Position numbers and translations under genes: made by a program
Source of the DNA: a virus
UHGV virus genome: UHGV-1764584
Strand: one strand, 5' to 3'
DNA: 15,232 nucleotides
The notes under the pieces: model-generated
Seen by the model: only the letters and a program-made list of their open reading frames with translations
Database searches by the model: none
Told to the model about the DNA's origin: nothing
Shown: piece by piece, positions 4,699-14,941 of the stretch
Layout of the letters: each line of letters begins with the position of its first letter
How positions within the stretch are numbered: the stretch's first letter is position 1

Positions 4699-4826
4699 AC
4701 CACAATATGTGGTATTAAAACCACATATTGTGAGTTTTTCAATGGGCGAAACAAAAAATAACCTTCTATTTGTGGTCCACCTCTCGTCTTACCATGTGAA
4801 AACCACTAAATGTGGTAATGTATAAA
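4699..4826. promoter_or_regulatory. Divergent promoter/operator region between the cro-like and cI-like genes
   Basis: Operator-like sites: O1 4699-4713 (ACCACA-ATA-TGTGGT, perfect), O2 4720-4734 (ACCACA-TAT-TGTGAG), O4 4802-4816 (ACCACT-AAA-TGTGGT). Leftward promoter TTGAAA (rc of 4737-4742), 17 bp, TTTAAT (rc of 4714-4719), with O2 in the spacer. Rightward candidate -10 TATAAA at 4821-4826. Confidence 0.55.
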
Positions 4827-4853: not shown

Positions 4854-5510
4854 ATGAAAAGCAACGACGAGAACATCAAGAAAGAAATAGGTCTGCGCAT
4901 TCAGACTCTACGGAAACAATCCGGCATGACTGCCGGAGATCTCCAGCAAGTCACTGGAATAGGCTTAAGCACCTTGCAGAACTATGAGGCCGGATTAAGA
5001 CAACCATCTATACCTGCCATCAAGAAAATCGCGCACGCCCTGAAAGCATCAGCGCCTTATATCGCGTGCTTAACAGATAACCCGTTCCCACCCCAGAATA
5101 CTAACGCTCCTGTTATTCCTGGGCTTGTAGCTATAAAAAATGACATAGCATCGCACGCCGGAGAAAAGCCAGTGCTGGCGATAGAACAGGAGATTCTACG
5201 AAGCAAGAACATCAACCCATCGTCTCTGTCAGTTCTCCAGAGCAACGATGAGTTAATGTCACCAACAATATCCCCTGGCTCCCAAGTCCTGATTAATACA
5301 GACGATACAGAGATTCATGAGGGGATCTATGCCCTTGAAGACAGAAATGGCCTGGTTGTTTTGAGGCACTGTAGAGTCATACCGGGTGACAATGCTGTTA
5401 TGCTGTCAACCGAAAGGGATGCTGAAATGAACACTAAGCATCTGAATAACGAGGAATTTAAGCGTTATAAAGTTCTTGGCCGCGTAGTTAGTGTTGTCAA
5501 CTGGTTATGA
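4854..5510 (+). CDS. cI-like repressor (XRE-type HTH plus LexA/S24-like C-terminal domain)
   Basis: N-terminal HTH (IGLRIQTLRKQSGMTAGDLQQVTGIGLSTLQNYEAG). C-terminal domain shows the S24-like pattern (GIYALEDRNGLVVLR...VLGRVVSV). Confidence 0.8.
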   Translation: MKSNDENIKKEIGLRIQTLRKQSGMTAGDLQQVTGIGLSTLQNYEAGLRQPSIPAIKKIAHALKASAPYIACLTDNPFPPQNTNAPVIPGLVAIKNDIASHAGEKPVLAIEQEILRSKNINPSSLSVLQSNDELMSPTISPGSQVLINTDDTEIHEGIYALEDRNGLVVLRHCRVIPGDNAVMLSTERDAEMNTKHLNNEEFKRYKVLGRVVSVVNWL

Positions 5511-5980: not shown

Positions 5981-6000
5981 CAAGCGGGCTAACGCCCGCT
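5981..6000 (+). terminator. Hairpin terminator candidate after gene 5603-5977
   Basis: AAGCGGGC-TAAC-GCCCGCTT, an 8-bp stem 4 nt past the stop, followed by an AU-rich tract. Confidence 0.45.
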
Positions 6001-6103
6001 TATATGATTATAGATTTATATAATTATATAAAACGCTTTTCATCCGCCAAAAAGTTGGTTATGCTTACCTCGTTCTATAAATATAGATTTATAGAATTAT
6101 ATA
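6001..6103. repeat. Two AT-rich boxes upstream of parA (candidate par operator/centromere-like repeats)
   Basis: TATAGATTTATA at 6008-6019 and 6082-6093, each followed by (T)AATTATATAA. The same core recurs at 6798-6809. Confidence 0.5.
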
Positions 6104-6127
6104 ACCAAACACATGGAGTCTCGACAA

Positions 6128-6781
6128 ATGACTATCTCTGTAGGTATTTTCAACGGAAAAGGCGGCGTAACCAAATCAACAATTGCCCGTGCTTTAGCAG
6201 TTGCTTATGCAAAGGCTGGCTGGAATGTATGCCTGATCGATATGGATGTGCTTAACGGAACGGTAACGCGTTGGGTACAACGCAGAATGGCCAACAATAT
6301 CGAACCAGCAATCGCGGCGCAGCCGTGCGGCACACCATCACAAGTCCAGAAAATCATCGAATCAGAAGTATACGACCTGGTTATCGTCGATGGCGGTGCC
6401 TACGCATCTGAATCAGTACCGAAGCTCTCTGAATTTCTGGATATGGTTATTTTGCCAACCAGATTCTCTACCGATGACCTGGAAACCACCGTTAACACAG
6501 CTCACGGCATCGTTAAAAAGGGTGTACCAATCAAGAAAATTTGCATGGTGTTTTCCGGCGCGGCTGAAAACGAAGCTGACTATATTGAAGCCCAAGAGTA
6601 CCTGGCTAATACGCCATACTTTGTTGTCGATAAGTACATTCCCCACAAGCCAGCTCTGAGCAAAGCTCAGGATAAGGGCTTAAGCCTCATTGAGTGCTCA
6701 TACGTTGCGCCACGCAAAAAGGCAGACGACGTTATTCAGGGGATTATCAACCAGCTTGAGGCTCTGACTACTGCCGCGTAA
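6128..6781 (+). CDS. parA: ParA-family partition ATPase (small ParF-type)
   Basis: Deviant Walker A GKGGVTKST, Walker A' LIDMD, and VIVDGGAYAS hydrophobic motif. Start chosen at ATG 6128 (GGAG at 6115-6118, 9-nt spacing); the ORF track's 6113 start is 5 codons longer. Confidence 0.8.
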   Translation: MTISVGIFNGKGGVTKSTIARALAVAYAKAGWNVCLIDMDVLNGTVTRWVQRRMANNIEPAIAAQPCGTPSQVQKIIESEVYDLVIVDGGAYASESVPKLSEFLDMVILPTRFSTDDLETTVNTAHGIVKKGVPIKKICMVFSGAAENEADYIEAQEYLANTPYFVVDKYIPHKPALSKAQDKGLSLIECSYVAPRKKADDVIQGIINQLEALTTAA

Positions 6782-6812
6782 TATATAATTATAGTTTTAT
6801 AGATTTATATAA
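6781..6812. repeat. AT-rich box between parA and the parG-like gene
   Basis: ATATATAATTATAGTTTTATAGATTTATATAA, carrying the same TATAGATTTATATAA core as 6008-6022. Confidence 0.5.
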
Positions 6813-6824
6813 GAGGGGATACAC

Positions 6825-7073
6825 ATGGCCGCACCATCAAAACCACCAAAGAAGAACAGCAAAGGCGTACCGCCATCGATCGAACAACCGCAGGTTTTCG
6901 ACCCGACTGAAACGCCAACCAGAACCAAATCAGGTGGGGCACAAATGGCGTTTAACGTCGACCCTGAATTTAAACGCGAGTACAAAACGTTCGCCAGCTC
7001 AATGGATATGTCATTGAAAGAAGTGCTGACAAAATCTTTTGAGTTACTCAAGGCTCAATACAACCAGAAGTAA
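6825..7073 (+). CDS. ParG-like ribbon-helix-helix partition/centromere-binding protein (82 aa)
   Basis: Directly downstream of parA with an AAGAGGGG RBS. Basic, Pro-rich, likely disordered N-terminal tail, then MAFNVDPEFKREYKTFASSMDMSLKEVLTKSFELLKAQ, a strand-helix-helix pattern comparable to TP228 ParG. Confidence 0.55.
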   Translation: MAAPSKPPKKNSKGVPPSIEQPQVFDPTETPTRTKSGGAQMAFNVDPEFKREYKTFASSMDMSLKEVLTKSFELLKAQYNQK

Positions 7074-7294: not shown

Positions 7295-7318
7295 TAAAAA
7301 AGGCCCCCGAAGGGGCCT
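7295..7318 (-). terminator. Rho-independent terminator oriented for minus-strand transcription
   Basis: Stem AGGCCCC/GGGGCCT (7301-7307 with 7312-7318) and loop CGAA. The A-run at 7295-7300 gives a U-run after the hairpin on the minus-strand RNA. Confidence 0.55.
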
Positions 7319-7323
7319 AATCG

Positions 7324-7446
7324 CTACTTGCTGCTAATGTTTATCGTCACATTCAGAGCGTTATCAGTAATCTTCCAACCCTCCCCATGTGGCGTAAACA
7401 AAGCTCCAGTAACAACGATAAAAATACACATACAGTATTTTTTCAT
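7324..7446 (-). CDS. Candidate 40-aa hydrophobic peptide (MKKYCMCIFIVVTGALFTPHGEGWKITDNALNVTINISSK)
   Basis: ATG at 7446 with AAGGG 7 nt upstream; the SD sits in a GGCC...GGCC hairpin. N-terminal hydrophobic segment. Ends just before the terminator at 7295-7318. The ORF track's 60-aa version begins at a non-ATG codon upstream. Confidence 0.35.
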   Translation of the reverse strand: MKKYCMCIFIVVTGALFTPHGEGWKITDNALNVTINISSK

Positions 7447-7677
7447 TGTATGGCCCTTACAGGCCGTTTCACGACATCCCCACCGACGAAAACAACGCGA
7501 GAGCAAGCACGGCTGCTTGTGCTTGCATGTACGGCAACAGGAAATCCTCCCCTAAAGTCGGTGCCCGGGTGCGAATCGGCGGGAAGGTCCACAGGTATTT
7601 TACGATTATTTTAAGATTAGTAATAGGAAAGAAATTAAACGAAAAAAACAGTTTATTTTCACAAAATCAGTAACCTA

Positions 7678-7733
7678 CCCACAATCTGTGAGTTTGCTGA
7701 CACAACAAGAACCACAATTTTTTGATGTATAAT
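7678..7733 (+). promoter_or_regulatory. Operator-like sites and -10 element upstream of the candidate sRNA / antirepressor operon
   Basis: O6 at 7678-7692 (CCCACA-ATC-TGTGAG, close to O2) and half-site O7 at 7711-7716. TATAAT at 7728-7733 is preceded directly by TG. Confidence 0.45.
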
Positions 7734-7738
7734 AGTGG

Positions 7739-7870
7739 ACTATTATTACCTTTTGAGTAAAATCAATTTGCTGCTTGTGCTTGCGTGGTTGTTTATACAA
7801 CAACGTAATGCTGAAAGGACCGCGAATCCGATCAGCACGAAAGAACCGTCCTCAATAGGGCGGTTTTTTT
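7739..7870 (+). ncRNA. Candidate small RNA / terminated leader (about 130 nt)
   Basis: Runs from the TATAAT promoter to a terminator at 7844-7870 (stem AACCGUCC/GGGCGGUU with one G-U pair, loop UCAAUA, then U7). Positions 7770-7787 are complementary to the minus-strand RNA at 7512-7529. Internal hairpin GTTGTT-TATAC-AACAAC at 7788-7804. Confidence 0.35.
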
Positions 7871-8017
7871 GTTTCTGCCTACCAATAAACCCACGCTATG
7901 TGGTTGTCTCTGTTAAAATCCCGCCGTATTGACATGAATGCGCCATTGGTGGACACTTTCCGAGCCGTAGCAAAATCTACGGTCGGGATTGGAACCCCGT
8001 AGACACAATGGCGCATA

Positions 8018-8040
8018 CCGCGTTAGCGGTTTTTTTATGC
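8018..8040 (+). terminator. Second short terminator-like hairpin in the antirepressor leader
   Basis: ACCGC-GTTA-GCGGT followed by T7. A GATTGGAACC 10-mer is repeated at 7988-7997 and 8150-8159. Confidence 0.3.
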
Positions 8041-8202
8041 GTAAAGCACTGCTACACCCAAATTATGGTGGGGCGTGCGGGGGAGTCGTAAGACTCGCCG
8101 GTTCGTCATTGTGTCCGGTAGTTCCAACCCTGCACGTCTCACCACCCAATGATTGGAACCTGACGGTGGTGAGTATCCTTAACCTTTAAGGGAATCATCA
8201 CA

Positions 8203-8394
8203 ATGACAAACCTACCCCATGACTATTACGTCAACCTCGTAAAGATCCTTCTCAAGAAAGCCTCATACGCCGATAAATTACGCCTGGCTGAAATCATCGA
8301 GCGCGAAGCTATGCGCATCGCCAGCAACGATAACGCTGTTTCTGACGCAAAAATCTCCCTCGTAACCAAAGTTGTTATGGGAGGTGCAAAATGA
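8203..8394 (+). CDS. Small protein (63 aa) translationally coupled to the antirepressor gene
   Basis: AAGGGAA RBS; its stop overlaps the antirepressor ATG (ATGA at 8391). Occupies the position that icd has in P1 immI. No sequence family recognised. Confidence 0.5.
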   Translation: MTNLPHDYYVNLVKILLKKASYADKLRLAEIIEREAMRIASNDNAVSDAKISLVTKVVMGGAK

Positions 8395-9542
8395 AAACGC
8401 TTCCGACCGTTAACACCCTACAGCCTATCCTGCATAATCAGATTCCAGTAATCACAACTGAGCTACTCGCCCGCCTTTATGGAACAGAAGCAATCCGTAT
8501 ACAGCAAAATCACCATGAAAATAAAACTCGGTTCATTGAGGGGAAGCACTTCTTTAAAGCTGTTGGTGATGAACTCAAAAATTTGCGACTAGTTTTAAAC
8601 GAGTCACAAAATGAGGTGCAAATTTCCCCCAAAACTCGCTCTCTCATCCTCTGGACAGAACGCGGGGCTGCACGTCACGCCAAAATGCTTGAAACTAACC
8701 AAGCGTGGGATGTGTTCGAACGGCTGGAAGACTGCTATTTCAACCAGAACGCGCAAACGGCCGCGACCGTAACCGTCTCACCAAACAATGCTCGTGAGGT
8801 TGTCGATACGCTCAACGCCAAACCGATGTTTTACATTAAAGTGTGCAACAACGAGCCACTCACAACCTCAGCCGATGTTGCCCAGGCATTCAGCACCACA
8901 AACAATTCCATCGTTATGGCCATCGATGCGTTACGCATTCCTCGCACAGCTGCGGCGCGTCATTTCTTTAAAGAGCAACGACCGTTGGAAGGAAGCGACC
9001 GCGAAATAACAATCTATCGCATGACAAAAGACGGATTTACCTTGCTCATGGAAAGTATCGACGGTCCAGGCGTGAAGGATATCAAGCTGGCCTACATTGA
9101 AGCCTTTAACGCTATCAGCAGCGTGTTAAAAACACAGTACGAGCGCGATCTGGCTAAACGACTGTACCAGGAAAAAACGATTATCCGCGCGGCAACAGAG
9201 CATAATCGGCTATTAACGGAACCGAACTACAGGAAGGAACTAATCAAGGAGTTTGACAAGGCAACAGGGAAAACCAAAGCGGCGCTAAGTCTGCCAGCAA
9301 TGACTCAGGAAAATGTGATATCAGCCTTACTTCTTGATCTGCTCAGAAACGCCAGAGCACTTATCAGCTTTGACGAAAACCTGAATCCTCAGCTCAAGCT
9401 ACTACCACCGACAGGCAAAGTAGTCGACCAGGCTGATCACAACAGCATACTCAGCGTACTGGATGCAAACCTGCCAGCCAGGACACTACAGGATCTGATA
9501 AAAACATGTGCTGATAAGCTGGCACAGAAAAGCAGACCATAA
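8391..9542 (+). CDS. Phage antirepressor (N-terminal ORF6N domain plus Rha/AntA-like domain)
   Basis: N-terminal IPVITTELLARLYGTEAIRIQQNHHENKTRFIEGKHFFK...LILWTERGAARHAKMLETNQAWDVFERLEDCYF is a classic ORF6N pattern. Middle PLTTSADVAQAFSTTNNSIVMAIDAL is Rha/AntA-like. Confidence 0.8.
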   Translation: MKTLPTVNTLQPILHNQIPVITTELLARLYGTEAIRIQQNHHENKTRFIEGKHFFKAVGDELKNLRLVLNESQNEVQISPKTRSLILWTERGAARHAKMLETNQAWDVFERLEDCYFNQNAQTAATVTVSPNNAREVVDTLNAKPMFYIKVCNNEPLTTSADVAQAFSTTNNSIVMAIDALRIPRTAAARHFFKEQRPLEGSDREITIYRMTKDGFTLLMESIDGPGVKDIKLAYIEAFNAISSVLKTQYERDLAKRLYQEKTIIRAATEHNRLLTEPNYRKELIKEFDKATGKTKAALSLPAMTQENVISALLLDLLRNARALISFDENLNPQLKLLPPTGKVVDQADHNSILSVLDANLPARTLQDLIKTCADKLAQKSRP

Positions 9543-9546
9543 CTAC

Positions 9547-9579
9547 AAGGGGCTACGGCCCCTTACTCTTTTCTCTCTT
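9547..9579 (+). terminator. Rho-independent terminator after the antirepressor gene
   Basis: Stem AAGGGGC/GCCCCTT (9547-9553 with 9558-9564), loop TACG, followed by the U-rich ACTCTTTTCTCTCTT. Confidence 0.55.
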
Positions 9580-14913: not shown

Positions 14914-14941
14914 CCCACAATCATAACCACGTTACGTGGTT
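14914..14941. promoter_or_regulatory. Palindromic operator candidate in the repA promoter region
   Basis: AACCACG-T-TACGTGGTT (14925-14941, 8-bp arms) preceded by CCCACAATC (14914-14922), identical to the left 9 nt of O6. On the minus strand it lies just upstream of a TATGAT -10 candidate. Confidence 0.4.

Follow-up and report, generated by a model that had tools for sequence, protein, structure and literature searches.

A probable P1-type immI operon with IsrK-like and C4 antisense RNAs on an Escherichia phage-plasmid

Identification of the module

The virus genome stretch UHGV-1764584 (15,232 nucleotides (nt); hereafter the window, numbered from its first letter) carries at 7887-9574 a module of small RNAs (sRNAs), a short open reading frame (ORF) of 63 codons (ORF63) and an antirepressor gene (ant). 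With a probability of about 80%, this module was assigned as a P1-type immI (secondary immunity) operon. The operon is a switch of a known kind, for which the P1 reading is the best supported. Membership of the RNA families, the gene order, the complementarities between the RNA elements with their co-variation, and the coding of ORF63 are established. When the whole window was scanned with Rfam at the gathering threshold, three matches were obtained (ryfA, isrK and C4 antisense RNA), and the last two lie within the module. Its features are as follows (aa: amino acids):

7890 to 7904, no strand: cI-type operator-like palindrome CCCACGCTATGTGGT, overlapping the upstream promoter at its -35 region; corresponds in position to P1 Oc4/Op51
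7911 to 7919, plus strand: extended -10 TGtTAAAAT, read from the sequence, of a putative repressor-controlled promoter; analogue of P1 P2c4/P51a, conserved in 10/10 relatives
7930 to 7958, plus strand: promoter TTGACA-17-GACACT, start at about 7964; analogue of P1 P1c4/P51b
7964 to 8036, plus strand: IsrK-like leader sRNA with a1 and b1; Rfam isrK (RF01394), 67.7 bits, gathering score 50
7987 to 7996, plus strand: a1 target GAUUGGAACC; core UUGGAAC (7989-7995) lying in the isrK hairpin-2 loop and complementary to C4 a' (8121-8127)
8002 to 8013, plus strand: b1 target GACACAAUGGCG, complementary to the C4 hairpin-2 loop
8061 to 8149, plus strand: C4 antisense RNA gene; Rfam RF01695, 77.8 bits, gathering score 45; full model, positions 1-87
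8151 to 8160, plus strand: a2 target GAUUGGAACC, an exact repeat of a1, 5 nt after the predicted 3' end of C4; its heptamer 8153-8159 pairs with a' (8121-8127)
8199 to 8212, plus strand: b2 target CACAAUGACAAACC, covering the ORF63 start codon (8203-8205)
8203 to 8394, plus strand: ORF63, encoding 63 aa and placed like icd in P1; TGA overlapping the ant ATG (ATGA)
8391 to 9542, plus strand: predicted antirepressor gene, 383 aa, with ORF6N and Phage_pRha domains
9547 to 9574, plus strand: predicted terminator-like hairpin closing the operon

The C4 antisense RNA and its targets

A covariance-model search with the Rfam C4 family had been proposed as a check in a first-pass annotation made from the letters of the window, and it was positive, well above the gathering score. 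The mature C4 RNA is predicted at about 8067-8146 from the boundaries of P1 c4. Its elements are b', which is the hairpin-2 loop (8100-8113), and a', which is the single-stranded GUUCCAA (8121-8127). Near the 3' end, CCACC (8142-8146) was invariant, P1 included.

The repeated leader motif GATTGGAACC, seen already at first pass, was found exactly twice in the window, at 7987 and 8151, against 0.04 occurrences expected by chance; by its complementarity to a', it is the a1/a2 target pair of C4. The b2 target (8199-8212) and 8100-8113 form an inverted repeat of 14 nt that is 93% complementary, and in the relatives b2 was located on or next to the Shine-Dalgarno sequence or the start codon.

Relatives were drawn from plasmid, E. 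coli and phage collections and from the homologues of ORF63. Co-variation was assessed with 11 more loci of the C4 type, which came from relatives among the phage-plasmids, a Serratia relative, an N15-like plasmid of Klebsiella, prophages of Yersinia and Hafnia, and P1. Six a specificities were found (UUGGAAC, UUAGCCU, UUGGCGU, UUUGCAC, UUGACAG and UUAGCAC), and the a1, a' and a2 heptamers changed together in all loci. The b' hairpin-2 loop changed together with b1 and b2, with several b specificities; in the Yersinia phage, for example, the change of b2 from CACAAUG to CACCAUG is compensated by that of b' from CAUUGUG to CAUGGUG.

For the helix count, 12 sequences were aligned over the helices of C4 and of IsrK and over the a1:a' helix, and the alignment was compared with column shuffles (n=500). 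Base pairing was kept in 97% of cells and 23 pairs were changed on both sides, a result reached by 0/500 shuffles; sliding the helix partners lowered the pairing to 33-45%. In the closing stem of C4 (17 pairs), pairing was 100% and 9 pairs had changed on both sides, and in C4 hairpin 1 so had 5/5 pairs, values again reached by 0/500 shuffles. Of the 7 pairs of the a1:a' helix, 4 had changed on both sides; 5/7 pairs of isrK hairpin 1 covaried. Duplex energies were predicted for cognate pairs and for non-cognate ones (each element paired with targets from loci whose own element differs); the cognate duplexes were better by 3-6 kcal/mol in all four comparisons, as follows:

a' with a1: cognate -14.1, non-cognate -7.9 kcal/mol
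a' with a2: cognate -9.6, non-cognate -6.7 kcal/mol
b' with b1: cognate -12.3, non-cognate -7.1 kcal/mol
b' with b2: cognate -11.9, non-cognate -8.2 kcal/mol

C4 and its targets change together across the relatives, and the pairings are therefore under selection.

Two further observations were made at C4. The 3' strand of its closing stem, CUCACCACC (8138-8146), can form an alternative helix with GGUGGUGAG (8166-8174) that places a2 in the loop. This helix is kept by compensatory changes in P1 and in the N15-like plasmid, with modest statistics (85% paired, 5 pairs changed on both sides, 5/500 shuffles reaching this). In addition, coding sequences (CDSs) named 'ash family protein' in RefSeq (L009:4729-5016, L012:4520-4687 and L013:4459-4734; compared loci are cited by L number and coordinates) overlie C4 matches (L009:4683-4770, L012:4597-4684 and L013:4593-4680, respectively), and are probably protein mis-annotations of the RNA gene.

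The IsrK-like leader RNA

The IsrK-like RNA ends at an intrinsic-terminator-like hairpin (8017-8036). In a permissive scan, the Rfam family c4-a1b1 was also matched at 7951-8003, with a score of 38.8 bits, below its gathering score of 46.7. The a1/b1 leader of P1, with its terminator-like hairpin, scored 35.1 bits on the isrK model; "IsrK" and the "a1/b1 leader" are therefore one element. In the predicted fold of the full leader, the IsrK-like part pairs with a' and b' in cis (z = -4.8).

The leader RNA systems of P4 and N15 act by transcription termination. Control of the P4 type (CI RNA with seqA/seqC) or of the N15 type (CA RNA) was weighed; here the C4-like RNA would act mainly by premature termination of the leader, and not by a block of ORF63 initiation. 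Such control agrees with the intrinsic terminator inside the leader (8017-8036), with the N15-like Klebsiella phage-plasmid, in which the same isrK and C4 pair precedes icd-like and Bro-N genes, and with the published likening of IsrK to P4 seqA and CI (PMC4825925). However, the sole intrinsic terminator lies upstream of C4, and no terminator-like site was found on the plus strand at 8150-9540. The placement of b2 on the ORF63 start codon, together with its positions in the relatives, is moreover the arrangement of P1, where it is annotated as repression of icd ant translation. Because no terminator stands between the targets and ant, and because b2 lies on the start codon, a termination-type mechanism is disfavoured, and we consider it unlikely. 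It is partly compatible with P1-type control, since P1 links both modes (a translation block leading to Rho-dependent polarity).

ORF63

The first-pass annotation had described a small ORF overlapping the start of ant. This was borne out: ORF63 has 63 codons (8203-8394), is preceded by the Shine-Dalgarno sequence AAGGG (8188-8192) and shares the ATGA overlap with ant, which was kept in 10/10 plasmid relatives. The protein matched phrog_7886 over its full length, and 34 homologues were found across the Enterobacterales (59-98% identity, nearly all of 63 aa). The ratio of non-synonymous to synonymous substitution rates (dN/dS) was 0.06-0.14 between divergent pairs. ORF63 is a real protein-coding gene.

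ORF63 had no match in Pfam or NCBIfam and no alignment with P1 Icd. The AlphaFold model is a three-helix protein (predicted local distance difference test score, pLDDT, 81), for which a Foldseek search against the PDB returned no match. N-terminally extended versions of ORF63 (95 aa) carry the same Pfam match, PF10554, as the 'ash' CDSs mentioned above.

In 5/7 further ORF63 loci, the next gene encodes an antirepressor (P22_AR_N or ORF6N) and overlaps by 4 nt; in the other 2/7, no such gene was called adjacent. Upstream of the ORF63 homologues, either isrK and C4 or an RNA of the sRNA-Xcc1 type was found. The sRNA-Xcc1-type RNA (RF02221) replaces isrK and C4 before ORF63 in an Erwinia prophage and in another enterobacterial prophage (L015:5876-5960, L019:5882-5965 and L020:193-276), and an overlapping antirepressor gene follows ORF63 in L015 and L020. 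Standing behind isrK and C4 as well as behind sRNA-Xcc1, ORF63 is thus a constant partner of two RNA families.

Tentatively, the isrK-like decoy RNA, C4 and ORF63 could be regarded as a portable cassette of three pieces that is re-used before unrelated antirepressors, a possibility that we find doubtful. If it were true, ORF63 would be a functional protein (e.g. a cofactor of Ant or an Icd-like host-directed factor) and not merely a coupling peptide. It would also be the constant element of the cassette, since it is found behind the sRNA-Xcc1 type too. The a and b specificities among near-identical 48-kb phage-plasmids would then be types of RNA-based incompatibility or heteroimmunity, deciding which co-resident elements induce each other.

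The antirepressor gene

The assignment of the larger gene to the ORF6N/Rha type, made at first pass, was upheld by Pfam (ORF6N at residues 12-99, 72.6 bits; Phage_pRha at residues 158-242, 47.1 bits) and by matches to several anti-repressor PHROGs (E values 1e-61 to 1e-24). A match to NCBIfam phage_pRha fell below the cut-off. The antirepressor function of 8391-9542 is a predicted one, taken from these annotations. When Ant was compared with P1 Ant1, the best E value was 4.8, and a search for Ant-related loci in genome contigs returned no match.

The antirepressor is split in several relatives (L004:5082-6224, L006:5438-6154 and L007:5438-6154), either as an ORF6N pseudogene with a separate Rha-family CDS or with only the Rha part annotated. 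Unlike these split forms, the antirepressor of the window is a single 383-aa fusion.

A resemblance to the sar/ant region of P22 had also been noted at first pass. Under a P22-type immI arrangement, an RNA from the opposite strand (sar) would lie across the ribosome-binding site of ant, and Mnt/Arc-like repressors would be expected. The presence of an antirepressor gene agrees with this, and nothing further does. No minus-strand promoter-like site was found at 8150-8450, nor was a cis-antisense arrangement; a small Arc/Mnt-like gene is absent, and the regulatory RNAs are same-strand RNAs of the C4 and isrK families. The resemblance was accordingly dropped, and we attach next to no weight to it.

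Operator, promoters and left edge of the module

The left edge of the module was placed at about 7887, because an insertion in relatives splits the upstream TimR gene (7770-7870, described below) from the module and leaves both flanks intact. The Yersinia phage, E. coli ATCC 25922 and E. albertii plasmids all have this insertion (0.73-0.8 kb), located between the TimR terminator and about 7887. It carries a minus-strand gene of about 180-190 aa with a helix-turn-helix (HTH) domain (L001:7560-8250, L003:4556-5380, L008:3795-4480 and L010:3828-4480), and the window is without it.

The operator consensus of the cI-like repressor, ACCACAnnnTGTGGT, is present in perfect or near-perfect form around the cI-like gene, at 4699, 4720, 4802 and 5553. 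In the whole window, 15 sites resembling ACCACAnnnTGTGGT were counted, against 5.1 +/- 2.2 expected. Near the module, such sites are at 7890-7904 (2 mismatches), 7678-7692 and 7711-7725 (3 mismatches each). The site at 7890-7904 was kept in 10/10 plasmid and phage relatives and forms the left edge of homology where the relatives carry the insertion; in each relative with coordinates checked, its distance to the isrK start downstream is exactly 74 nt. The bona fide operators of the relatives also contain ACCACG. The cI-like repressor would be expected to bind at 7890-7904.

The site at 7678-7692 was tried as a conserved operator and rejected: apart from its 3 mismatches, it is lacking in 2/3 variants of the region between timP and timR, even though cI-type operators of the same kind are present in those relatives. 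Of the first-pass proposal of cI-type operator sites at the promoter, the operator-like site at 7890-7904 stood and the weak one at 7678 did not. The module start that had been set at 7678 was moved to about 7887.

In 11/11 loci compared, including the annotated P1 promoter, a TTGAC -35 element and a -10 element were found at a constant distance from the isrK start. The spacing between the two promoters is 11 nt in the window and 12 nt in P1.

In the Serratia relative, the operators are of a related but different type, and no matching site was found upstream of its leader. In the N15-like plasmid, the palindrome at the operator position, GTGACTGGTCAC, is unlike the cB/cro operators of that plasmid and is present in three copies; in lambdoid prophages, only the conserved TTGAC promoter was found at the position of the module. 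Repressor control is accordingly proposed for the plasmid family of the window and for P1. The three copies of GTGAC(nn)GTCAC in the N15-like Klebsiella phage-plasmid, one within repA, one immediately before the isrK promoter and one elsewhere (L012:4424-4435, L023:4138-4149 and L022:38155-38166), may be a dispersed centromere or other protein-binding sites.

Proposed mechanism

The following steps are proposed from homology and sequence; this applies to the processing of C4, to coupling and Rho polarity, to cI at the operator, to the decoy role of the short RNA and to the target of Ant.

Transcription would start at about 7964 from the family-conserved promoter TTGACA-17-GACACT and, probably, also at the upstream extended -10 promoter, whose -35 region lies under the cI-type operator (7890-7904) and which the primary repressor would shut. 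The leader would first yield the IsrK-like RNA with a1 and b1, ending at the intrinsic terminator (8036). Transcripts that read through would hold C4 (about 8067-8146), probably to be released by processing, as happens in P1. The a' and b' elements of C4 would then pair with a2 (8153-8159) and with b2 (8199-8212, over the ORF63 AUG) on the mRNA, and translation of ORF63 would be blocked. With C4 in excess no Ant would be made, since the start of ant overlaps the stop of ORF63, so that coupling would be lost, and since the untranslated RNA would be open to Rho (polarity is probable).

The IsrK-like RNA is a plausible decoy, or anti-antisense, because it matches a' and b' better than the mRNA does and because it pairs with them in cis in the predicted fold. 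By titrating C4, or by holding it in cis, the short RNA would turn ant on, in line with what has been reported for IsrK of Gifsy-1. The Ant then produced would inactivate the cI-like repressor (4854-5510).

Several points weigh against this reading. At the DNA level, the operator-like site at 7890-7904 has two mismatches, and the -10 element of the conserved promoter is poor in the window (GACACT). No matching operator was found at the module position in the Serratia, N15-like and lambdoid prophage loci, and all the relatives that were fetched carry one repressor type, so that there is no co-variation of operator and repressor to compare. At the RNA level, the minimum-free-energy fold of the whole leader pairs a1/b1 with a'/b' in cis, which makes the acting RNA species ambiguous. 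At the protein level, neither ORF63 nor Ant is related in sequence to its P1 counterpart (Icd and Ant1, respectively), which leaves both the Ant target and an Icd-like activity as guesses. Finally, ant has a strong Shine-Dalgarno sequence of its own (GGAGG, 8380-8384), and strict translational coupling is therefore not guaranteed.

Comparison with known switches

Facts on P1 were taken from the annotated GenBank record and from two papers (PMC8198154, PMC8546580). In P1, the c4-icd-ant operon is repressed by C1 and controlled by the C4 antisense RNA (PMC8198154). The annotated order of P1 immI is as follows: Oc4 (Op51) over the -35 region of P2c4 (P51a); P1c4 (P51b) 12 nt further on; a1 and b1; the 77-nt c4; a2; b2; icd; and ant1. 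The same record places a2 4 nt after c4, and ant1 overlaps icd by 4 nt. The module of the window has this order, with nearly the same spacings, from the operator-like site and the two predicted promoters to the small ORF and the antirepressor gene overlapping by 4 nt. The C4 RNA is of the same family, with 77.8 bits in the window and 68.8 bits in P1. The resemblance to c4-icd-ant that had been suggested at first pass was thus borne out by the C4 and isrK matches, the element order and an ATGA overlap like that of icd and ant1.

The two operons differ in their cargo, which is not homologous (ORF63 and Ant as against Icd and Ant1), whereas the RNA module is. Unlike in P1, where b2 lies at the Shine-Dalgarno sequence, b2 covers the start codon in the window; the a1/b1 leader of the window scores as a complete isrK RNA and has a good terminator (67.7 bits for the window, 35.1 bits for P1); and, unlike C1, the repressor of the window is a cI/LexA-like HTH protein with palindromic operators. 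P1 and P7 are heteroimmune, and the natural switching of a and b specificities among close relatives of the window resembles the P1-P7 case.

In Gifsy-1 of Salmonella, isrK is followed by a C4 homologue about 25 nt further on and then by the antirepressor gene anrP, as in the window; a further shared feature is the complementarity of the terminated short form of IsrK to the C4 region that follows it. IsrK activates translation of anrP in trans, and this translation depends on an upstream ORF (orf45) whose stop overlaps the anrP start; orf45 is conserved as nucleotides and not as protein, and a processed RNA complementary to IsrK, STnc1160, arises there (PMC4825925). We observed that a homologue of the C4 antisense RNA (69 bits, L024:34131-34316) occupies the same place as orf45, and the nucleotide-only conservation and the origin of STnc1160 fit an orf45 that lies over C4. 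In the IsrK paper, the Gifsy-1 locus is related to P4 CI/seqA, and P1 c4 goes unmentioned (PMC4825925). In contrast to Gifsy-1, with its orf45 over C4 and no conserved protein, the window has a separate and strongly conserved 63-aa gene after C4; the antirepressors are of different families, and no antQ-type output is evident in the window.

The predicted processed leader RNA, pairing with sites upstream and downstream of itself, is also like those made from the leader of an antirepressor or replication operon in N15 immA (CA RNA-icd-antA/antB) and P4 (CI RNA/seqA/seqC). The isrK and C4 of the N15-like plasmid share the a specificity of the window, UUGGAAC. The cargo genes of N15 and P4 (Icd-like, Bro-N) differ from those of the window.

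The C4 and c4-a1b1 motifs have already been catalogued across Proteobacteria and phages (PMC2864571). Against this background, the current understanding of such switches is unchanged, and a well-documented example is added. A stretch left as "hypothetical protein" in public records is annotated, and the leader RNAs of P1 immI, Gifsy-1 isrK and the N15-like plasmid are seen to be one homologous module, which has diversified into several pairing specificities within one Escherichia, Yersinia and Klebsiella phage-plasmid family. Three points go further than the textbook case: the variants of specificity found between near-identical phage-plasmids, the travelling of ORF63 with the RNA module before different antirepressors, and the adjoining timPR pair. 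The natural specificity variants could be used for testing RNA-based heteroimmunity.

The adjoining timPR unit

Upstream of the module, and outside it, the following features were identified:

7770 to 7870, plus strand: homologue of the TimR antitoxin sRNA; promoter TGGACT-16-TAAAAT (7736-7763), terminator at 7844-7870
7296 to 7592, minus strand: timP (ryfA) toxin mRNA; Rfam ryfA, 144.5 bits, gathering score 80
7446 to 7324, minus strand: TimP-like ORF of 40 aa, a small hydrophobic peptide similar to K-12 TimP

By homology, 7296-7870 is the known timPR (ryfA/timR) type I toxin-antitoxin system of Salmonella and E. coli (PMC7667032, PMC11228461), separate from the antirepressor module. The segment 7770-7870 aligns along its length with the 100-nt timR of E. 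coli K-12, and the TimP-like ORF starts at nt 147 of the mRNA, as in K-12. Over 18 nt, with one G-U pair, the 5' end of TimR (7770-7787) shows complementarity to the timP mRNA at nt 64-81. The sequence of this pairing segment differs among K-12, the plasmid of the window and its relatives; complementarity is kept, with compensatory changes among the plasmids.

The divergent arrangement of toxin mRNA and sRNA, the homologous peptides and the pairing in the timP 5' untranslated region, about 65-85 nt from the mRNA 5' end, are shared with timPR of Salmonella and E. coli. Unlike the chromosomal systems, the copy in the window is carried by a phage-plasmid and has a different antisense segment; the timP-timR intergenic distance is 178 nt, compared with about 400 nt in K-12. 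The complete pair adjoins partition genes, and plasmid-borne timPR may serve plasmid maintenance.

The first-pass annotation had described one structured leader with two terminator-like hairpins, and had suggested that its RNA might also pair with the divergent peptide mRNA. According to this proposal, antirepressor and toxin would be linked by a single leader RNA that begins at about 7740, governs ant and also base-pairs with the mRNA of the toxin-like peptide. The 18-nt complementarity (15 nt identical on the DNA strand, plus G-U) is consistent with such a link, as is the distance of only about 90 nt from the first terminator to the isrK promoter in the window. Both hairpins are indeed present, but the first (7844-7870, by sequence reading and fold) ends the separate TimR gene. 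By sequence, length and pairing position, the 7770-7870 RNA is a homologue of K-12 TimR, and it has a promoter and a strong terminator of its own. TimR and timP are, moreover, an already established type I toxin-antitoxin pair (PMC7667032). In many relatives, the insertion with its opposite-strand HTH gene stands before the operator at 7890 and both units are intact. The cassette of isrK, C4, ORF63 and ant was also found without any ryfA match in the scanned lambdoid prophages, the Gifsy-1 stretch and the N15-like plasmid. The linked reading was therefore abandoned as very improbable, and the antirepressor module is set apart from the adjoining plasmid-borne timPR pair.

Source and surroundings of the window

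The window belongs to a family of Escherichia phage-plasmids of about 48 kb, which are at once non-mobilizable plasmids and phages. It matched 60 PLSDB plasmids and 72/5426 complete E. coli genomes; the closest match was that of E. fergusonii NZ_CP057568 (99.7% identity), and Yersinia phages vB_YpM_39/41/44 were about 92% identical.

Upstream of the module, the cI-like repressor gene (4854-5510) encodes a protein of 218 aa with an HTH_3 match and a weak Peptidase_S24 match, and ParA is encoded at 6113-6781. Six AT-rich iterons (TTATAGATTTATATAA and variants), at 6000-6112 and 6781-6820, flank parA and precede an ORF of 82 aa (6825-7073); they are probably the partition centromere. A further operator-like palindrome, ACCACGTTACGTGGT (14926-14940, 2 mismatches), stands just upstream of a minus-strand gene of 330 aa (14899 to 13907). 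It is also kept in the Yersinia phage and is likely to be a further repressor-controlled promoter site.

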